Assembly: GCA_021730945.1 (NCBI GenBank)
Contig: JAKFYH010000005.1
Span: 73,014 to 137,013, forward strand
From: Acidobacteriota bacterium
GTDB lineage: Bacteria > Acidobacteriota > Vicinamibacteria > Vicinamibacterales > UBA2999
Reading direction: 5' to 3'
DNA: 64,000 nucleotides
Shown here: one piece after another, positions 1,231 to 34,174 of the stretch
Layout of the letters: each line of letters begins with the position of its first letter
Position numbering within the stretch: the stretch's first letter is position 1
The notes under the pieces: model-generated
Told to the model about the DNA's origin: nothing
Databases searched by the model: none
What the model saw: only the letters and a program-made list of their open reading frames with translations
Program-made: the position numbers and the translations under genes

Positions 1231-1250
1231 GAGGCGGTCGGCACCGCCTC
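1231..1250. terminator. Perfect 8-bp stem, 4-nt loop hairpin between convergent genes
   Basis: GAGGCGGT-cggc-ACCGCCTC lies 10 nt beyond the stop (TAA, 1260-1262) of the minus-strand gene. There is no clear U-run, so terminator function is uncertain. Confidence 0.35.
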
Positions 1251-1259
1251 TGAATCCGG

Positions 1260-2138
1260 TTAGTGATCGATCCTGAGCCGGCCCGGCACGTAGAAGTAGC
1301 CGACCAGGCGGTAGTCACACAGGTTCGCCCGCTCCAGTTCTCGCGCCGGCATCGCCGCACCGCTGGCATCGCAGGCCTGTGGCGGCAGCGGCCCGTGCTT
1401 GTGCGTCCAGTGCGTACCGTCGAGCCGGAGGAAGTGAAAGTCGGAGGCGTTGACGGCCAGCGCGACGTGCCAGCCGCCAGTCGCGCCCGGGGGCACCGTG
1501 ATCGGGTCGGCCGCCGGGATCAGCCCGTCAGGGGCAAGAATGGCGGCCCATTGGGTATAGCTGGTTATGGTTGACGGTCGGCTCGCCGGTGTTGCGCCCA
1601 CCGACATGCCGCCGAAGCGGCACCACACGTCCTTGACGGCATAGTTGAAGCAGTTGCTCGACTCGCAGATCTCAAATGGGAGCCAGCTCGCCGCGTCAGC
1701 GACCATGCCGCACGCGCAGGCGGTTGCCAGCGACGTGTGGTGATTGGCGGCATGACCGCACCGCCGCCAGTCGGCCTTGGCGCCGCCCGCTGCCGGTTTC
1801 TTGAGGGCGGCACTCTCAGTGACCGCGGGGAGCTTGGCCACAATCGGATCGATCATGGCGCGAAGGCGGTCGACGCCGGAATGACTGCCACGGTGAGTGA
1901 CGGCATACGTGCGGAAGACGTAGGCCCACTCGTGGCGCTCGCCTTCAGTGCGGCTGAACAGCACATCACTGCCGGCCGGCGCCAGATTGACCAGGCACTT
2001 CCAGCACAGGTCGATCGGCACGGCCGAGACCGGCAGGTCATTGATGACCGACCACAGGCGATCACTCGTGGCCGGGTCGACCGACGTCGCCCGATTTGGC
2101 CGCCCCGAATACTTCAGTTCAATCAGAGTGCTGGCCAT
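1260..2138 (-). CDS. Cys-rich hypothetical protein; C-terminal half has papain/transglutaminase-like Cys...His...Asp spacing
   Basis: Start ATG 2138 (MASTLIELKYS) is preceded by GGTGGA-actg. It overlaps the SagB stop (2119-2121) by 20 nt. SNCFNYA (C-x-x-[FY]-A) is followed 61 residues later by GGWHVALAV and then SDFHFLRLDGTHWTHKHG. GC3 is high like the neighbours. The longer track ORF (to 2225) would overlap SagB by more than 100 nt. Confidence 0.6.
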   Translation of the reverse strand: MASTLIELKYSGRPNRATSVDPATSDRLWSVINDLPVSAVPIDLCWKCLVNLAPAGSDVLFSRTEGERHEWAYVFRTYAVTHRGSHSGVDRLRAMIDPIVAKLPAVTESAALKKPAAGGAKADWRRCGHAANHHTSLATACACGMVADAASWLPFEICESSNCFNYAVKDVWCRFGGMSVGATPASRPSTITSYTQWAAILAPDGLIPAADPITVPPGATGGWHVALAVNASDFHFLRLDGTHWTHKHGPLPPQACDASGAAMPARELERANLCDYRLVGYFYVPGRLRIDH

Positions 2139-3216
2139 CAGTCCACCAATCGAGATGCGGGAGCCCCTGGTCCCTGCCGGCGGCTGGGGGCCGCCCGCAA
2201 CCGGCGACATAGACCACGCCTTCACTCACGGCGTCGATGCCGAGCGCCGCGTCAATCGCGTCTTCGTCGATGGCGTGCGTGCAAAACGGCGCCAGGCCGC
2301 GTTCGGTCGCCAGCAAGTAGAAGGTCTGGCACACATGGCCGGCTTCGATCAGCACGTTGCGATAGGCCTTCGCCACCGGATACCGCCACATCGTCCGTTC
2401 AAACACGGCGGTGAAGAGGACAACGAGCGGGGCGTGTCCGTACCAGGGTTGAGCCTGGATGAATTGGTTGATGAGTGGCCGGCCGCCGCCACGGCGCAGG
2501 CGCGCCAGGACGTGGCCGGCCGCATCGTAGTGATAGAGACCGCGCGCCAGGCCCTGGACACGGTTCGCGATCACATAGGCCTCGATCGGATGGCAGATGC
2601 CGCCCGACGGCGAGGTCTTGAGCACGACTCGGCGGTTGGCCGGGTCGCGCGCCCACCGTTGCACACCGACACTGAGCCGGAGCAGGTCGGCCAGGTCGTC
2701 CAGCGCGAGGGGCGCGCGTGAGAACTGGCGCCAGGTGCGCCGGCGTTGGAGCAGTTGCTCCAGCGGCGACGGTGATTGCGGACGGGGCAAGGGAATACGG
2801 ACCGACGCGGTACGGACGGCCGTTGGCGCCGGCGGCGGCGTGGTCTGGGCCTTGCGGGCCAGCCGCCGTTCGCCTTCCGATACGTCGGCGTTGAAGCGAG
2901 TGCCACGGGTTGAGAAGTGAAAGAAACCGGCGGCGGGATCCCATTCGCCCCAGGGATCGGGCGGCTCGGCCGCTGGGCGGGATCGCGCGGAGGCCAGGGT
3001 CGCCGCGCTCAGGGCGCGCAGGATGGCGCGGGTGGCCCCCACCGGGAGGGCCACCTCGCGCGCGACTTCAGAGGCGAGCGCCCAGCGATCGAGCGACTGC
3101 ACCACGCGGAGGATATCAGGGGTAAGCGGCACGGTCTTGCCCGTCCGGTAGTTGGAGATCAGGCACGCGCCGTCTTTCCAGTAGCCCACGAGGTGTGGGC
3201 TCCGGCGAAACCTCAC
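2119..3216 (-). CDS. SagB/ThcOx-type FMN-dependent dehydrogenase (nitroreductase superfamily) with an N-terminal winged-helix-like extension
   Basis: RRRTWRQF...LSVGVQRW...LKTSPSGGICHPIEAYVIA...GLYHYDAAGHVL...VLFTAVFERTMWRYPVAKAYRNVLIEAGHVCQTFYL is the SagB-type dehydrogenase domain pattern. The preferred start is GTG 3216, forming a GTGA overlap with the stop of the upstream small ORF. ATG 3264 in the track would overlap that ORF by 52 nt. Confidence 0.85.
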   Translation of the reverse strand: MRFRRSPHLVGYWKDGACLISNYRTGKTVPLTPDILRVVQSLDRWALASEVAREVALPVGATRAILRALSAATLASARSRPAAEPPDPWGEWDPAAGFFHFSTRGTRFNADVSEGERRLARKAQTTPPPAPTAVRTASVRIPLPRPQSPSPLEQLLQRRRTWRQFSRAPLALDDLADLLRLSVGVQRWARDPANRRVVLKTSPSGGICHPIEAYVIANRVQGLARGLYHYDAAGHVLARLRRGGGRPLINQFIQAQPWYGHAPLVVLFTAVFERTMWRYPVAKAYRNVLIEAGHVCQTFYLLATERGLAPFCTHAIDEDAIDAALGIDAVSEGVVYVAGCGRPPAAGRDQGLPHLDWWTDGQHSD

Positions 3217-3521
3217 TTCTTGCCCTTGGCCTTCTTGCCCATCTTCTTGGTGCCCGGCGGCCACGCCTTGATGGCGTCCTGGTCCACGGTGTAGAACCCG
3301 TAGTACGGGTTGGGGCAGTAGACGCCGAGGGCGGCCTGACGCACGCCGTTCAGGGCCTGGATGATGGCGTCAAGGCGCTGCCGTTCCACCGGTGTCGCGC
3401 TGGCATGCAGCGAGGCCTTGACATGCTGAGCCAGTTGCGTCGTCTTGCGGATCTCGGCGGTCAATCCGCTCGTGCTGAACGCAAAACTCACCGGGCTACT
3501 ATCCTTCTTCGCTTTCGCCAT
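3213..3521 (-). CDS. 102-aa small protein with Lys-rich termini, no recognised family; candidate substrate or partner of the SagB-like enzyme
   Basis: ATG 3521 is preceded by GGAGG (3530-3526) with a 4-nt spacer. Stop TGA 3215-3213 overlaps the GTG of the SagB gene. Sequence is MAKAKKDSS...GVYCPNPYYGFYTVDQDAIKAWPPGTKKMGKKAKGKK. Confidence 0.65.
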   Translation of the reverse strand: MAKAKKDSSPVSFAFSTSGLTAEIRKTTQLAQHVKASLHASATPVERQRLDAIIQALNGVRQAALGVYCPNPYYGFYTVDQDAIKAWPPGTKKMGKKAKGKK

Positions 3522-3542
3522 CTGTCCTCCAGGGGTGTGGAA

Positions 3543-6041
3543 TCAGTTAATCAGTTGCAACTGCCGAATCAAGTCTTGGAACGCCGGATCGGCGCGGAGC
3601 GGATCGAAGCGGGGATCGACCCCGATCCAGATCACCGAGGGCAGGCGCGCGGCCATGGCCTCGAGCAGCAATGCCATCGCGCGATCGCGCCGCCCTCGCG
3701 CCAGCTCAACGAAGGCGAGTTGGTCGGCGGCCAGCCGGCGGTCGGCGTACGCGCGTTCGAGCTGCACCATCAGTTGCTCGGCCTCGTCCGTGCGTCCGGC
3801 CAGGTAGAGAATGCGGGCGAGCTCGGCTTGCACGGGTGGCACGTCGCGATTGGGACCGGAGCGGATCATCGCGATGGCCTCGTCGTGCCGGCCGGCCGCC
3901 GAGAGGAACCGGCCAAGGCCGAGATGAGCGATGGCCGCGCTGGGATCACGAGCCAGTAACTGGCTGGACTGGTCGATCGCTTCGTCGAACCGGCGCAGGT
4001 AGTACAGGCAGATCGCCACCGCGCTGTGGCGCGAGGCGTTGAGTGGTTCCAACTGCAGGGCGGTCCGCGACTCGGCCAATGCCGCTTCGAGGCGATTGTT
4101 CGACATCAGTAATTGCGCGTAGAGGCCGCGGGTGTTGGCATCGCTCGGATTGAGGTCAATGGCGCGCCGGAAGTGCTGCTCGGCGCCGCGCCAGTCCCAA
4201 TAGCCGGTGGCCCGTACCCATCCCAGTACGGCTTCGGCATATCCCAGGCCCGGGTCGAGCGTCCGCGCGCGCTCGGCGCGGCGCTCCGCTTCGGCAAGGG
4301 CGTCGGCAATCTCGATCTCGCGGTACGAGGTGCCGAGCAATCCAGTGATGTAGCCCAGGGCGGCCTGGGCCTGGGCAAACTCGGGTGCGAGGGTCACGGC
4401 CTTGAGGAACTGGTCGCGCGCCTGCCGGGTCGGGTTGGGTGACAGGCCGTAGTATTCCTGCCAGCCCCTGAAGTAGGCCTCGAGCGCTTCACTCGAAGGT
4501 TGCGAGCTGGCTCGACGAGCTTCGGCGGTGATGGGAGAGCGCAGCGCGCCGGCCACCTCAGCGGTGATCCGCCGCTCGGTCTCGAACAGGGCGTCGAGGG
4601 TGGATTCGTAGATCGCGCTCCAGAGCACGGTGCCGGCGCCGGCCTGGACCACCCGGACGGACACCGACAACCCTCGCCCCGCGGTCGGACGCACGCTGCC
4701 TTCGACCAGCGCGTCGACGCCGATGTCGCGGGCGACTTCCTCGTGCTGACGCAGCGTCCGGTCGCTGCGCGAGCGCGTCGTCACGACGCGCAGCCGGGTC
4801 TGCTGGCCCAGGTCGGTAGTGATGAGGTCGGCGAGGCCCAGCCCCACGTGGCTGAGCGACTGGTCGGACGACAGGTCGTCGAATGGGAAGACGGCGACTG
4901 CACTGGCCGCCACCACGGGTGCGGCCGGCGCGAGCAATCGCCACCCCAGTCCAGCGACAGCCATGCCAGCGATCGCGGCGAAGGCCACCGTCAGCCAGAT
5001 ACCGGCGCGCGGGTGACTGACGGCGGGAGGGACCACCAGCGCCGATAGAGCGTCAGCCAGATCCGTCGCCGAGCGATACCGCGACGCCGGGTCGTCGCTG
5101 GTCGCCCGCTCGACCACGGTGATGAATGCCGCCGGCAAGTCCCCGCGAAGGTCTGGCAGCCGGATGCGCGACTGCTGGCGATGACCGTCGACGATCTCCG
5201 GCACGCTGTTGCCGCGCACCGGAAACCGGCCGGACACAAGGTAAAACAGCAAGACACCAAGCGCATAGATGTCGGATTGAATACTCGCCGGCCGGCCTTC
5301 GAACAGTTCGGGCGCCAGATAGAGCGGAGTACCGGCGCTGCGCGGGCGGGCGTGCGCGGCGAGATCGTGGCCGAGGCCGAAATCCATCAGCACGTAACGG
5401 CCGCCGGCCTCGCGCATGACGTTCTGCGCCTTGATGTCCCGGTGCACGAGTCCGGCGCCATGCACCGCGGTCAAGGCCCGGCACATGTCAATGCCGACCA
5501 GCGCGGCCTCGGTCGCACTGAGCGTGCCGCGGCGCTGGACGATCGTCTCGAGCGTCTCGCCGGACACCAGTTCCATCCACAGGCCGACTCGTCCGTCCAG
5601 TTGCTCCGTGCCGTGGACGGTCACCACGTTGGGATGCCGAATACGCGCCAGCAGGCGCGCTTCGCTGAGTACGCCCTCTGGCGCGCTGGCGCCGGCTGAG
5701 GGCTTCAGGAACTTGAGCGCGACCTGACGGTCGAGCCGGGTATCGATCGCGCGAAAGACCTCGCCCTGGTTGCCGCCGCCCAGCCGTTCGAGCAGCGCGA
5801 AGTGGCCCCAGTGCGGGACCGCTCCGGTGCTGGGACTGCGGACCACGCCGGCGGCCGGGCCGTCGGCGCCTGGGTCGGTCTGGTGCAGGCCGCTTAGTTG
5901 CGACACCAGGCGCAGGTTGGTGATCAGGGCCAGGTCGTCCTCAGAAACTGATGCGGCTTCGAGCGCGTCCCAGTCGATCGGCTCGCCGTCAGAAACGGCG
6001 GTCGCGACCGCCAGCCACCGGGCTTCGTCAGCGGCCTTCAT
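3543..6041 (-). CDS. Membrane Ser/Thr protein kinase with extracytoplasmic TolB-N-like and TPR repeat region
   Basis: Kinase motifs are present: GGGNQGEVFRA, VALKFL, HRDIKAQNV, DFGL, APE. One TM segment (IWLTVAFAAIAGMAVAGLGW), then AVFPFDDLSSDQS... and multiple TPR-like repeats. ATG 6041 overlaps the ECF sigma stop (6028-6030) by 14 nt. Confidence 0.9.
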   Translation of the reverse strand: MKAADEARWLAVATAVSDGEPIDWDALEAASVSEDDLALITNLRLVSQLSGLHQTDPGADGPAAGVVRSPSTGAVPHWGHFALLERLGGGNQGEVFRAIDTRLDRQVALKFLKPSAGASAPEGVLSEARLLARIRHPNVVTVHGTEQLDGRVGLWMELVSGETLETIVQRRGTLSATEAALVGIDMCRALTAVHGAGLVHRDIKAQNVMREAGGRYVLMDFGLGHDLAAHARPRSAGTPLYLAPELFEGRPASIQSDIYALGVLLFYLVSGRFPVRGNSVPEIVDGHRQQSRIRLPDLRGDLPAAFITVVERATSDDPASRYRSATDLADALSALVVPPAVSHPRAGIWLTVAFAAIAGMAVAGLGWRLLAPAAPVVAASAVAVFPFDDLSSDQSLSHVGLGLADLITTDLGQQTRLRVVTTRSRSDRTLRQHEEVARDIGVDALVEGSVRPTAGRGLSVSVRVVQAGAGTVLWSAIYESTLDALFETERRITAEVAGALRSPITAEARRASSQPSSEALEAYFRGWQEYYGLSPNPTRQARDQFLKAVTLAPEFAQAQAALGYITGLLGTSYREIEIADALAEAERRAERARTLDPGLGYAEAVLGWVRATGYWDWRGAEQHFRRAIDLNPSDANTRGLYAQLLMSNNRLEAALAESRTALQLEPLNASRHSAVAICLYYLRRFDEAIDQSSQLLARDPSAAIAHLGLGRFLSAAGRHDEAIAMIRSGPNRDVPPVQAELARILYLAGRTDEAEQLMVQLERAYADRRLAADQLAFVELARGRRDRAMALLLEAMAARLPSVIWIGVDPRFDPLRADPAFQDLIRQLQLIN

Positions 6042-6633
6042 GCATCACCTTCGCAATCTTCAACAACGCGCGGCTGATCATCATGCGGACGGCATCGGGG
6101 CTGGACCGGTCCATCGATGCCGCGATCTGCGCGTACGAGCAACCGAACTCAATCCGCGAGACCACCGCCTCGCGCTCGTCTGGGGCGAGTTGCGCCATGG
6201 CGGCCTCGTAGCGGTCGAGCGCCTGGCGGCCGATGACTTCTTCGATCGGCGACGGCTGCGGGTCCGGGAAGCTGGTGTCGAGCGGATCGTGCGGCGCGCG
6301 CGAGGCGCGCCGGACTTCGTCGATCAGCCGGTTCTGCACCGCCCGGCGCAAGTAGGCGTGAAAGCCGCCGTCGCGGGTGGGCTCGAAGGTGTCGATGTGA
6401 CGCAGCGTCTGCATCACTGACTCCTGGACCAGGTCATCGGTGTCGCGCATCTGGCGGGCCCACCGGGGCAGCCGGCCGCGCGCCCATCGTGTGAGCGGCG
6501 CCAGGTAGCGGCCGAGCAAGCTGTCGAGCGCAGCTTCGTCGCCGTCGCGGGCACGGGCGAGGAGATCGCGAGTGGACTCGACGCCGGCGGCGTGATCGGC
6601 GCGGCCTTGGGGCCTGGGTGGCGGACGATCCAT
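6028..6633 (-). CDS. ECF-type RNA polymerase sigma factor (kinase-linked type)
   Basis: Region 2 (DDLVQESVMQTLRHIDTFEP...FHAYLRRAVQNRLIDEVRR) and region 4 (REAVVSRIEFGCSYAQIAASMDRSSPDAVRMMISRALLKIA). ATG at 6633. Confidence 0.85.
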   Translation of the reverse strand: MDRPPPRPQGRADHAAGVESTRDLLARARDGDEAALDSLLGRYLAPLTRWARGRLPRWARQMRDTDDLVQESVMQTLRHIDTFEPTRDGGFHAYLRRAVQNRLIDEVRRASRAPHDPLDTSFPDPQPSPIEEVIGRQALDRYEAAMAQLAPDEREAVVSRIEFGCSYAQIAASMDRSSPDAVRMMISRALLKIAKVMHEGR

Positions 6634-6660
6634 GCGGCTGTGGTGCGCATCCTAACCGAT

Positions 6661-6870
6661 TCACGGTCTGAGCGGCGGCCGGGCAATCCGAAGTGCAAGT
6701 TGCACCCGTCCCTCCACCTGCATCTTCTTGCACGCGGCAGCGACGTGCTTCTTCACGGTGCGCTCGGAAATGCCCAGCGCCTCCGCGATGCGCCGGTTAC
6801 GCCAGCCGCGCGAGACGGCCAGCGCGACCCGGCGTTCCTGCGGCGTGAGCGTCTCCGGCGCCTCGCTCAT
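6661..6870 (-). CDS. Stand-alone LuxR/GerE-type HTH protein (69 aa)
   Basis: MSEAPETLTPQERRVALAVSRGWRNRRIAEALGISERTVKKHVAAACKKMQV is a GerE-type HTH. ATG 6870 forms an ATGA overlap with the stop of the upstream sigma-like gene. The N-terminal extension to 7047 in the track lies in a different frame from the sigma-like gene's 3' end. Confidence 0.7.
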   Translation of the reverse strand: MSEAPETLTPQERRVALAVSRGWRNRRIAEALGISERTVKKHVAAACKKMQVEGRVQLALRIARPPLRP

Positions 6871-7721
6871 CGCGACGCCTCGGCCTCGAGCGGCATGCCG
6901 ATCCAGCCGGTGACGGCGGCGCGCGTCACGCCGTCGCGCTCGATCGCGCGGCGCAGGTCGCGCAACAGCTGCTCGCAGTGACGGTAGAGCGGCTTGGCCG
7001 CCTGGGCGGTTTGCTCGGCCAGTGTTGCGAGGGAAATGCCGTGGCAATAGCGGTGGATCAGCAACTGCCGGTCGGCCGGTGCCAGCCCGTCCAGCGCGCG
7101 GCGTAACGCGGCCAGGGCGCGCCGGCGCTCGCGGGCCGCCTCAGCCTCGGCCTGCAGATCGACTGCGGGATCAGATTGGTAGTGGTCCACGCACTCGGCC
7201 GCCACGAACGTACGCCGCGACCGGGCCTTGAGCCGTTGGCAGAGCTCCCGCAACCACGAACGGTCTGTTTCGGGATAGGCGGCCAGAAACCACTGCTCGG
7301 CTTCGCTCATCGTGAAGCCGTCGCGCCGGATGAGCCGGTCCAGCTCGATGCCGAGCGGACCATGCTGGCGGGCAACCACGCTCGGACGCCACCGGCCCCA
7401 GTCGCGAATACGCTGATCGAGCAGCAGGTTGTGCGCCACGCTGGTGAGGTAGGTTTCGATCGACGCCTGTCCCCGGAAGTGCCGTAACAGGCGGCCCTGG
7501 CGGGCTGAGACCTTGACCCACAACTCCGACCGCAGGTCTTCAGCCTGGTCGTCGGTGAGGCGAAACCGCCGCGCGGTGCGAGTGGCTGCCGCTTCCACGG
7601 CCGGACCCCAGAGCTCGAATAGAGCCCGTGGATGCAGGCAGACTTCGGAACGGGACGGTCGCCGACGTGCTGGCGGCGGGACCTGAACCAACGGCGCAGA
7701 CCTGAGCACGGCTGAAGCCAA
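6867..7721 (-). CDS. Divergent sigma-70/ECF-like protein with an insertion between regions 2 and 4
   Basis: TTG start 7721 is preceded by GGAGG-tttcg. Region-2-like DDQAEDLRSELWVKV...ETYLTSVAHNLLLDQRIRDW. Region-4-like LAPADRQLLIHRYCHGISLATLAEQTAQAAKPLYRHCEQLLRDLRRAI. About 60 aa lie between them. Confidence 0.6.
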   Translation of the reverse strand: MASAVLRSAPLVQVPPPARRRPSRSEVCLHPRALFELWGPAVEAAATRTARRFRLTDDQAEDLRSELWVKVSARQGRLLRHFRGQASIETYLTSVAHNLLLDQRIRDWGRWRPSVVARQHGPLGIELDRLIRRDGFTMSEAEQWFLAAYPETDRSWLRELCQRLKARSRRTFVAAECVDHYQSDPAVDLQAEAEAARERRRALAALRRALDGLAPADRQLLIHRYCHGISLATLAEQTAQAAKPLYRHCEQLLRDLRRAIERDGVTRAAVTGWIGMPLEAEASR

Positions 7722-7849
7722 CGAAACCTCCTATGGTGACCTTTGGATCAGGTCACTTTGGTTGCATAGGGGGTAACGATGGCCGGGGGCAAAACGAACA
7801 GCCCGCCGATAAATTGTCTGGGGAGGGCGTCGAGCCCTGGGCGGGCCGC

Positions 7850-8752
7850 CTATGCCGGCCGGACGAGGCAAACCGCCTGCCAATGGTCTTCGTCCAGGCG
7901 CCGGACCTCGGCCAGGCCCGGCAGCGCGGCCAGGACCCCGTCGATTTCGGTATGGTCGAACCCGCTCACGATCAACCGGCCGCCCGGATTCACCAGGGCC
8001 GCAATCGCGCGCCCGCTCGAGGTCAGCATGCCGCCGGTCAGGTTCGCGAGCACCAGGTCGGCCGGGGCCGGCGGCGCGGCGCGAAAGTCAGACACCTGGA
8101 ACTCGATGGTGTCGGGCAGCGTGTTCATGCGGGCGCTGGTTTCGGCCGACTCAATCGCGTCCACGTCCACATCGATTCCGACGACGCGGCGGGCGCCGCT
8201 GAGCGCGGCCGCCATCGTCAGCACGCCGGATCCGGTCCCGAGGTCCAGGACGGTCAGGTCCGACACGTCAAGCTCCGACAACAGGCGCAGGCACATCCGG
8301 GTGGTCGCATGGTGGCCGGTGCCAAACCCCATCGACGGTTCGATCACGATCACGGTGGCGGCGACATCGGCGGCCGGCATGTCCCACGGCGGCGCGATGA
8401 TGAAGCGGCCCGCGTGGACCATGGTCAGCGTTGCCTGTGAACGGGCCGCCCAGTCCTCGTCTGGCAGGTCCACTGACTCGACCACCAGATGGGGCAGCGC
8501 CTCACGGATCGCGGCGGCGGCCAGGTCGCGCTCGCTGGCCTCGTTGAAGCAGACATTCCAGTGCAGGGGAGTCGGTGGCGGATCGGGAATCGGCGGGTAG
8601 GTCGGATCCCACAGCCCACCGGGCGGCAGCGGCCGCTCGGCAAGGTCATGTATGGCGACCGGCGAAAAGTCGGTGAGGACCGCGGAGACGAGGTCTTCCG
8701 AGTCATCGACGATGGTGGCGCGCAAGAACAACGCCGGCCATTGACGAGTCAT
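7850..8752 (-). CDS. prmA: Ribosomal protein L11 methyltransferase
   Basis: FGTGHHATTRMCLRLL...VLDLGTGSGVLTMAAALSGARRVVGIDVDVDAIESA is the PrmA SAM-MTase pattern. Start ATG 8752 (MTRQWPALF) avoids overlap with dnaJ. Confidence 0.85.
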   Translation of the reverse strand: MTRQWPALFLRATIVDDSEDLVSAVLTDFSPVAIHDLAERPLPPGGLWDPTYPPIPDPPPTPLHWNVCFNEASERDLAAAAIREALPHLVVESVDLPDEDWAARSQATLTMVHAGRFIIAPPWDMPAADVAATVIVIEPSMGFGTGHHATTRMCLRLLSELDVSDLTVLDLGTGSGVLTMAAALSGARRVVGIDVDVDAIESAETSARMNTLPDTIEFQVSDFRAAPPAPADLVLANLTGGMLTSSGRAIAALVNPGGRLIVSGFDHTEIDGVLAALPGLAEVRRLDEDHWQAVCLVRPA

Positions 8753-33854: not shown

Positions 33855-33929
33855 GCGGGAATAACTCAGTGGTAGAGTGCGACCTTGCCAAGGTCGAAGT
33901 CGCGGGTTCGAATCCCGTTTCCCGCTCCA
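33855..33929 (+). tRNA. tRNA-Gly (anticodon GCC)
   Basis: Manual cloverleaf. Acceptor GCGGGAA/TTCCCGC, D stem ACTC/GAGT, anticodon stem CGACC/GGTCG with loop TTGCCAA, T arm GCGGG-TTCGAAT-CCCGT, encoded CCA. Confidence 0.9.

Positions 33930-34100: not shown

Positions 34101-34174
<74 letters not shown>

Follow-up and report, generated by a model that had tools for sequence, protein, structure and literature searches.

A rare acidobacterial gene cassette that joins a kinase-linked ECF sigma factor to a SagB-type enzyme and a conserved small protein

Introduction

Sigma factors of the extracytoplasmic function (ECF) type whose genes adjoin that of a Hanks-type Ser/Thr kinase, and which come without an anti-sigma factor, are a recognised class that takes in the groups ECF43, 59-62, 217, 267 and 283 (PMC7826278). 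The sigma factors EcfP and EcfK have been demonstrated to be phosphorylated directly, EcfK carrying phosphosites in its linker too, and activation of a sigma factor by the Hanks kinase encoded beside it thus has a precedent; in ECF43 the DxxDxxQE of region sigma2.2 is replaced by uncharged residues together with a conserved phospho-acceptor Thr, with the consensus QTTA (PMC13147305). A second relevant set of systems is built around SagB-like enzymes. Those of tiarin and trifolitoxin bear a recognition element (RRE) of the kind known from the peptides that are made by the ribosome and modified after translation (RiPPs), and they act on a precursor encoded upstream with non-azole chemistry (bioRxiv 10.64898/2025.12.02.691738). 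Here we describe a locus in which components of both kinds occur together: a block of seven minus-strand open reading frames (ORFs), g1 to g7, that runs from 7721 to 1260 (Table 1) in a stretch of 64,000 nucleotides of contig JAKFYH010000005.1 from an uncultured soil acidobacterium. This whole stretch is referred to below as the window.

The cassette (6.5 kb) is real, rare and so far undescribed; we found no description of it in the open-access literature, and the g5 and g7 families and the partnership of g6 with g7 were likewise found neither there nor in the family libraries. Both types of ingredient, the kinase-linked ECF sigma factor and the SagB-type enzyme, are already known, and it is their combination that is new. 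We read the block as a kinase-activated, self-amplifying operon whose output would be the cytoplasmic modification of a conserved small protein, g5, and to this reading as a whole we give about an even chance (roughly 0.5). That its regulatory half is a self-contained kinase/ECF operon is well supported by the sequence comparisons, and this half is probably autoregulated. The output half is best read as enzyme and substrate, with the flavoenzyme g6 and its thiol-type partner g7 predicted to act on g5.

Results and Discussion

A cassette with a constant five-gene core

All seven ORFs and all six of their junctions are present where a preliminary description of the window had placed them. Tight junctions by themselves are ordinary in a high-GC operon, and the block rises above chance because its arrangement is conserved in relatives. 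The cassette was found in eight independent metagenomic loci with the tight junctions kept; g3 and g4, for example, overlap by 14 nt in the close loci, by 4 nt in L009 and by 11 nt in L015. Six Vicinamibacterales-type loci share the prmA/DUF1028 chromosomal site, and in L006, L007, L008, L010 and L014 the cassette occupies the chromosomal site that it has in the window. In L015 all seven genes lie in an unrelated neighbourhood, with g7 (36% identical) ahead of g6. The conserved linkage of the regulators with the SagB module that the preliminary description had proposed is thus borne out, a different genomic context included.

The same description had considered three regulators and a kinase to be hard-wired to this module, and for the ECF sigma factor g3 and the kinase g4, which are constant, this is so. 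It is not so for the other two: g2 has been deleted in L006 and L007, where 75-87 nt are left in its place, and both g1 and g2 are gone from L009, where the ribosome-binding site and first codons of g1 persist, fused to the spacer in front of g3, and a five-gene core is what remains. The gene for g2 is present in L008, L010, L014 and L015. The constant core of the cassette is g3-g4-g5-g6-g7, and g1 and g2 are lineage-specific accessory regulators.

Within the core, g6 and g7 form the tightest pair. In L019 the kinase and the small ORF are followed by one 648-aa fusion of g6 and g7 (the metagenomic protein P0028 is the same protein, and the fusion is counted once). Wherever a more distant contig was examined (g7 24-27% identical), the g7 homologue likewise had a nitroreductase/SagB-like gene directly beside it; these contigs are 1-2 kb long.

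The cassette is rare by any of the counts available to us. Among 5.8 billion proteins there are 11 clusters for g7 and 7 for g5, the latter rising to 15 with a profile search; of 185,579 species representatives in GTDB a single one, a Vicinamibacterales metagenome-assembled genome, carries it, and the JGI scan gave one locus only. The loci bear no signs of mobile elements, and the cassette sits amid housekeeping genes at a stable chromosomal site.

One of the loci, L014 (a Logan contig), is irregular. Its kinase gene and its g7 are each frameshifted (2304-4785 and 6185-6860), so that the kinase N-terminus is uncalled and g7 is called as a protein of 184 aa, the C-terminus of which can be read in a different frame, and the locus's downstream neighbours (SBP_bac_3, VWA) differ from those of the other loci. 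This is either a decaying copy or an assembly error or chimera.

A kinase-linked ECF sigma factor

Protein g3 is a standard two-domain ECF sigma factor (Sigma70_r2, E 6e-12; Sigma70_r4_2, E 8e-10; TIGR02937, 66.9 bits) that is 59-75% identical between loci. In six orthologues its sigma2.2 sequence RDT(D/E)DLVQES is invariant, and so is a Ser-Pro in the linker. The kinase g4 (Pkinase, E 1.9e-41), 52-74% identical between loci, has intact HRD, DFG and APE motifs in the translation and is laid out as an N-terminal extension of 75 aa, the kinase domain, one transmembrane segment and an extracytoplasmic sensor region that is TolB_N/FlgO-like (TolB_N, E 0.0024) and matches tetratricopeptide repeat (TPR) families. 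The first gene, g1, encodes an ECF-like member of the sigma-70 family with a long sigma2-sigma4 linker, which scores 47.3 bits against TIGR02937 (cutoff 42.9) and falls below the gathering score of Pfam Sigma70_r2 (E 9e-5); its orthologues are 54-56% identical, that of L015 35%. Finally, g2 is a stand-alone helix-turn-helix (HTH) protein of the LuxR/GerE type (Pfam GerE, E 2.3e-15). No Pfam or NCBIfam anti-sigma domain was matched by any of the seven products; the 75-aa extension of the kinase may perhaps have a cryptic anti-sigma role.

Considering these components, the locus resembles the ECF43-type modules EcfP/PknT of Vibrio parahaemolyticus and EcfK/PknS of Xanthomonas citri, and the modules of groups ECF59-62, 217, 267 and 283, in that g3 is joined to the gene of a transmembrane Hanks kinase. 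An extracytoplasmic sensor, the lack of an anti-sigma factor, adjacent targets and likely autoregulation are further shared features (PMC13147305, PMC7826278). What the preliminary description had taken for an unusual regulatory load includes, therefore, a signalling pair of a known kind, the overlapping genes of an ECF sigma factor and a Hanks kinase. There are also differences: in front stand genes for a second ECF-like sigma factor and a mini-LuxR protein, the output consists of a SagB-type module and not of genes for a type VI secretion system or polymyxin resistance, and g3 has an acidic DTDDLVQE in place of the uncharged Thr-containing motif. On this last ground membership of g3 in ECF43 was rejected. 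By analogy, g3 and g4 would work like a kinase-activated ECF pair outside ECF43 and may fit another of the kinase-linked groups.

A promoter-like motif in front of the cassette

In the spacer between prmA and g1 the window has the ECF-type promoter-like motif TGTTCG-N16-CGTT (TGTTCGTTTTGCCCCCGGCCATCGTT). Eight loci have their upstream end available, and in every one of them the motif stands, in identical form and with the same 16-nt spacing, ahead of the gene that opens the cassette; in L015 the surrounding sequence is unrelated, and in L009 the motif now precedes g3. The 64-kb window contains a single exact match, with 1-mismatch matches at chance level. This pattern suggests that the motif acts as a promoter. 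Because it persists in L009 despite the loss of g1 and g2, g3 is indicated as its cognate sigma factor, and the comparison points to g3 as the protein that reads it. Autoregulation of this kind is common among ECF sigma factors (PMC7826278).

Of the three places at which the preliminary description had envisaged a motif for the ECF sigma factor (upstream of 7721, 6633 and 3521), only the first has one; ahead of g3 (6633) and of g5 (3521) there is no copy in any locus. Nor is there any sign of a promoter for g5-g7 embedded in the end of the kinase gene, since synonymous-site conservation there is not raised (third codon positions, 0.25-0.30 at the 3' end against a gene mean of 0.28).

Two other parts of g4 do have elevated third-position conservation. 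One is its first 20 codons, which overlap g3 (0.55); the other is codons 681-700 (3942-4001), at 0.65 in five close loci against the mean of 0.28. No promoter motif was found within codons 681-700, and the elevation may be either chance or a codon bias in a TPR repeat.

A short element in front of g3, ATCGG(A/T)TAGGATGC(C/G)CGC, is conserved in all loci (L006 2400-2429, L009 about 415-448, L015 5890-5919, the last as ATCGGTTACTATGCCCG), and it survives where g2, or g1 and g2, have been lost. No matching -35 sequence was seen; the stretch could act as an internal -10-like element, as a signal for translation or as a site at which a protein binds.

The small protein g5

The first of the output genes always directly follows the kinase gene, with GGAGG or AGGAG 4-6 nt before its ATG. 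It encodes a basic protein, 78-114 aa long across the loci, with a conserved core of about 70 aa: the sequence FAFSTxxLT, two predicted helices and then C-P-N-P-Y-Y-G-F-Y-T-V-D (CPNPYYGFYTVD). This C-terminal motif is the most conserved part of g5 (C69, P70 and T78 are invariant, N71 nearly so), and it is only the tails, often Lys-rich, that vary. The protein has no signal peptide and no Pfam or NCBIfam match. We presume that it is the substrate of g6 and g7.

Residues 13-24, FAFSTxxLTxEI, contain a near-invariant T17 and T21 in a T-x-x-I/L/V pattern and are a candidate phospho-acceptor site. An FHA domain was found in none of the cassette products.

The SagB-like enzyme g6

Protein g6 is a SagB-type flavin mononucleotide (FMN) dehydrogenase (TIGR03605, 125 bits for a cutoff of 78.4; Pfam Nitroreductase, E 6e-20), with PDB profile matches to 3eo7, 8pz5, CyaGox (5lq4), BmdC (7ly4) and McbC (6gos). 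Its catalytic domain thus falls into the SagB branch of the nitroreductase superfamily, together with the enzymes of the thiazole/oxazole-modified microcins (TOMMs) or linear azole-containing peptides (LAPs), such as SagBCD and McbBCD, and with ThcOx and CyaGox; it differs from CyaGox in having W-R-Y in place of W-K-Y in the aligned segment. Residues of about 27-90 recurrently match winged-helix families (HTH_IclR, E 1.9e-5 in the L008 orthologue; weakly EutK_C, TFE and KdgR), and this N-terminal domain is predicted to be of the fold class of the RRE.

Among the subfamily models the best-scoring is TIGR04511 (SagB_rel_DH_2), a 'putative peptide maturation dehydrogenase' whose systems also include a small peptide and a large signalling protein with TPRs. 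The scores of g6 (211 bits in the window, 199 in L015, 161 in L019) are under its cutoff of 240 bits, and membership was rejected for that reason. Moreover, g5 and the sensor region of the kinase match none of the partner families of those systems, in which g7 has no counterpart.

The start of g6 deserves comment. The ORF listing extends it to 3264, and metagenome gene callers choose either GTG 3189, which would leave a 23-nt gap to g5, or a start far upstream. The coupled GTG at 3216 is supported because every orthologue keeps the N-terminus, M-x-F-R-R-S-P-H/F-L with R4, R5 and S6 invariant in the alignment, as far as that codon; GTG 3189 was rejected, as it would cut away the conserved FRRSPHL. 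The starts in the relatives agree: L015 has an ATG at the same point (ATGA overlap), L008 a GTGA overlap, and L009 and L019 a stop codon followed by GTG with no gap. The GTGA junction of g5 and g6 reported in the preliminary description is consequently favoured. Automated calls in L001-L003, L006, L007, L010, L011 and L014 disagree among GTG 3189, GTG 3216 and a start 49 nt upstream, so that database entries of the g6 family are often 9 residues short or 10-16 residues long at the N-terminus.

The Cys-His-Asp protein g7

The partner of g6, labelled Cys-rich in the preliminary description, has no sequence match in Pfam, NCBIfam, PADLOC or the PDB. An exhaustive profile search with a threshold of E<=1e-3 gave 358 representatives, of which 17 reach E <= 1e-30 and are close to full length; as representatives at 50% clustering, the 358 set a lower bound on the family. 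The protein has two domains. The N-terminal one is beta-rich and carries a conserved Cys/His cluster (C45, C48, C127, H129, H134, C141, C143). The C-terminal one has an invariant Cys163/His235/Asp257 in the motifs NNCYNYA, HFLRLD and CDxxG: among 46 sequences C163, H235, R238, W244 and D257 are invariant, and among 67 the same is true of C163, H235 and W244, with D257, R238, H246 and K247 at least 90% conserved.

An AlphaFold2 model from the 67-sequence alignment (predicted local distance difference test, 90.5; predicted template modelling (TM) score, 0.90) places Cys163 at the opening of a helix (163-167) and His235 on a strand (234-240). The order of Cys at a helix start, His on a strand and then Asp resembles that of the papain-like clan CA (C39, Josephin, NlpC/P60), and the H-F-x-x-x-D and D-x-x-G-like motifs are similar as well. 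Unlike papain-like enzymes, g7 has the additional N-terminal domain and matches no sequence profile of any Pfam, NCBIfam or PDB family. A Foldseek search of the PDB gave nothing significant. Papain-like folds are the one theme that comes back among its weak matches, with Josephin, MepS, the C39 domain of PCAT1 and PLpro at a probability of at most 0.2.

In BFVD, three uncharacterised giant-virus proteins were found at a Foldseek probability of 1.0: F2Y2U4 (E 7.6e-5, TM score 0.60 on the target), M1HB16 and the Hokovirus protein A0A1V0SF80. The g7 domain may therefore be shared with nucleocytoplasmic large DNA viruses. The metagenomic protein P0088/P0174 (1111 aa) combines a g7-like C-terminal domain (962-1098) with a transglutaminase-core domain (281-415), and since it carries both, the g7 domain would be distinct from, yet combinable with, the classical Cys-His-Asp transglutaminase fold.

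A proposed mechanism

In the mechanism that we envisage, the TPR region of the kinase would sense an envelope or extracellular cue and the kinase would activate the co-translated g3. Phosphorylation is probable by analogy with the other kinase-linked ECF sigma factors, with the linker between sigma2 and sigma4 a likelier place for it here than sigma2.2. Protein g3 would drive transcription from TGTTCG-N16-CGTT and so amplify its own module, with g5, g6 and g7 made from the same mRNA via translational coupling. It would then be for g6 to dock g5 through its winged-helix, RRE-like domain and to oxidise it, with the invariant Cys-Pro-Asn or its immediate surroundings as the most plausible site, and g7 may work on the same substrate as a thiol hydrolase or transferase of a papain- or C39-like type. 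Since neither an exporter nor an immunity gene nor a signal peptide is present, a small protein modified inside the cell is a likelier product than a secreted antibiotic; g5 is also long, evenly conserved and cytoplasmic, which again fits a modified small protein better than a peptide for secretion.

The trifolitoxin and tiarin enzymes TfxB/TfxC are a near parallel to this output half, in which a SagB-like FMN dehydrogenase likewise has an N-terminal winged helix and the gene of the candidate substrate likewise lies just upstream, behind a strong Shine-Dalgarno (SD) sequence. Unlike TfxB/TfxC, the cassette has a single dehydrogenase, no exporter and an obligate Cys-His-Asp partner, and the 78-114-aa g5 has a folded-looking conserved core with an invariant Cys-Pro-Asn instead of a conserved Gln.

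A more pointed version of the proposal, which we regard as tentative and on balance unlikely, holds that g5-g7 are a YcaO-independent modification system, in which g7, a previously unrecognised enzyme family, would be the obligate partner of a SagB-type flavoenzyme, sometimes fused with it, in modifying Cys-Pro-Asn of g5, and that the modified g5 would itself be the intracellular output of the ECF/Hanks pathway.

Several observations weigh against the operon as we read it. The g3 protein retains the acidic DTDDLVQE, for which phosphorylation substitutes in ECF43, so its activation step may differ. The promoter-like motif is as yet unmatched to any catalogued ECF group, and the spacer between prmA and g1 has no convincing terminator, which makes read-through from prmA possible. 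The winged helix of g6 did not hit the PqqD/RRE model. The papain-like nature of g7 is suggested by its residue pattern, by the order of its secondary structure in the model and by Foldseek probabilities no higher than 0.2. Finally, g5 is long, its whole core is conserved, more so than g7, and it is atypical of a leader-core precursor.

Alternative explanations

In the first alternative, g5 is a small signalling protein whose main role is to serve the kinase as adaptor or phospho-substrate, and g6 and g7 are unrelated redox and hydrolase stress enzymes that share its regulon. The constant place of g5 directly behind the kinase gene and its conserved Ser/Thr-rich stretch with T17 and T21 would suit this, all the more as Hanks kinases usually have several substrates (PMC13147305). 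It leaves unaccounted for, however, a pair of enzymes that is obligate, adjacent in every locus examined and once fused, the peptide-docking kind of winged helix in g6 and the translational coupling of g5, g6 and g7, and no FHA or other phospho-reader domain is present in the cassette. We consider this alternative improbable.

Less probable still is that the genes form the end of the heat-shock operon hrcA-grpE-dnaJ-prmA, or that they are two or three separate units which happen to be co-directional. The strand is shared, the 128 nt that separate prmA from g1 contain no scored terminator and fold no better than shuffles in relatives, and the conserved spacer element ahead of g3 could be an internal signal. 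Against this, L015 keeps the cassette and its promoter motif without any heat-shock genes, L009 keeps the motif before g3 after the loss of g1 and g2, no gap within the block exceeds 27 nt, and synonymous sites ahead of g5 show no constraint.

The SagB module of the preliminary description could also be taken for a canonical TOMM/LAP-type RiPP antibiotic cluster, in which g5 is a leader-core precursor, g6 an azoline oxidase and g7 a leader peptidase, and from which the product is exported. In its favour, g6 passes TIGR03605 and matches the azoline oxidases CyaGox, BmdC and McbC, g5 is encoded immediately upstream with a strong SD sequence and has an invariant Cys, and g7 has weak C39-like and papain-like structural matches. 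Yet neither a YcaO/E1-like cyclodehydratase nor an ABC exporter nor an immunity gene is found in the block, among its neighbours in the window, in L006-L010 and L019 or in the different flanks of L015, and the label does not hold if an azole-peptide cluster is meant by it. TOMM precursors are short, with a conserved leader and a variable core rich in Cys, Ser and Thr; g5 has a single invariant Cys, no Gly-Gly site, no hypervariable core (the putative core being its most conserved part) and no signal peptide, and g6 remains under the cutoff of TIGR04511, the nearest peptide-maturation subfamily. With YcaO, exporter and immunity genes missing from these loci, the canonical cluster was rejected, and we rate this explanation below the two preceding ones.

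Finally, an anti-phage or conflict system, with the kinase sensing infection and g5-g7 as effector, is highly improbable: the kinase domain scores against the PADLOC defence-kinase models PD-T4-6, mad6 and PglW, the C-terminal domain of g7 resembles the giant-virus proteins and the distribution is patchy and rare, but these kinase matches are generic, PADLOC gives nothing for g1, g3 and g5-g7 and only a generic HTH for g2, the chromosomal site is stable, amid housekeeping genes and free of mobile-element signs, and an extracytoplasmic sensor fits the sensing of the envelope or environment.

Boundaries, leader and neighbouring features

Upstream of g1, hrcA, grpE, dnaJ and prmA lie on the same strand, with the prmA stop at 7850; downstream of g7, a DUF1028 gene and rsmE are convergent with the cassette. 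A consensus scan of the minus strand found no terminator-like site within the block, and both intergenic gaps (27 and 21 nt) are too small for one. The preliminary description had also reported the block to be free of hairpins. Its statement stands as to terminators, and has to be amended as to inverted repeats, which are GC-rich and lie within ORFs (for example at 2738-2771, 4773-4791 and 6289-6315), as is to be expected at 67% GC.

The two marginal hairpins that it named, at 7736-7756 and 1231-1250, are both present and both fold more stably than shuffles. The one at 1231-1250 has no U-tract on either strand and is not scored as an intrinsic terminator; it is likely to be the end of the transcription unit. 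The other had been taken for an upstream boundary and is instead part of the leader, since it sits between the promoter-like motif and the ribosome-binding site; being downstream of that conserved motif, it was also rejected as a terminator of prmA.

Table 1. Coordinates of the cassette genes and associated features, as positions in the window.
Feature	Position	Strand	Remarks
ECF-type promoter-like motif TGTTCG-N16-CGTT	7775-7800	minus	prmA-g1 spacer
Leader	7729-7774	minus	inner hairpin GTGACCT...AGGTCAC at 7736-7756, 7-bp stem, inside an outer stem
g1, sigma-like, 284 aa	6867-7721	minus	TTG start, AGGAGG 5 nt upstream
g2, GerE-type HTH, 69 aa	6661-6870	minus	ATGA overlap with g1
Spacer element	6634-6660	minus	27 nt, before the ECF sigma gene
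g3, ECF sigma factor, 201 aa	6028-6633	minus	27-nt gap after g2
g4, Ser/Thr kinase, 832 aa	3543-6041	minus	14-nt overlap with g3
g5, small protein, 102 aa	3213-3521	minus	21-nt gap with GGAGG after g4
g6, SagB-like, 365 aa	2119-3216	minus	GTGA overlap with g5
g7, 'Cys-rich', 292 aa	1260-2138	minus	20-nt overlap with g6
Hairpin, 8-bp GC-rich stem	1231-1250		between the convergent g7 and DUF1028 genes; -18.8 kcal/mol, z -4.7

The leader has a more elaborate fold than the inner hairpin. A CC(U)CC/CCUAUG tract just past the -10 element (7757-7774) can pair, around that hairpin, with the AGGAGG of g1 (7725-7735), and the complete fold of inner and outer stems (7725-7770) has a free energy of -16.1 kcal/mol (z -3.0). 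Of seven loci, five are predicted to form the outer, anti-SD pairing. Few positions of the hairpin vary: on the sense strand G-U pairs are retained after the substitutions in L007 (A>G) and L014 (C>U), and the variant found in L009 has 8 bp. It may be speculated that, if the ECF-driven transcript begins downstream of the tract, only prmA read-through RNA would have the ribosome-binding site of g1 masked.

Nearer to prmA, the spacer stem-loops of the relatives fold no better than shuffles. The relatives (L006 1357-1401 and its equivalents) have a conserved A/T-rich sequence, AACTATTTTT, about 8 nt upstream of the -35-like hexamer, where the window reads ACAATTTATC (7801-7850). Two readings of it are possible, an UP-like element or the U-tract that would belong to a weak terminator of prmA. 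At the Rfam gathering threshold the sole matches in the 64-kb window are the two tRNA genes at 33855-33926 and 34101-34171 on the plus strand, and near the cassette neither a riboswitch nor a leader RNA of a known type was found.

Implications

Kinase-linked ECF sigma factors are a recently established mechanism, of which very few outputs are known: type VI secretion and polymyxin resistance. Here the output would be encoded on the same mRNA, which would bring signal, regulator and target together in one small locus. The pairing of g6 with g7 points, in addition, to a SagB chemistry without need of a YcaO cyclodehydratase, a field of RiPP enzymology that is still open. At 6.5 kb the cassette is small enough for synthesis and expression, even though its hosts, which are Acidobacteriota, are uncultured. 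If the modification of g5 is as proposed, the modified protein might be, for example, a nucleic-acid-binding or redox-active factor, and a RiPP-type enzyme would here be used for signalling and not to make an exported natural product.

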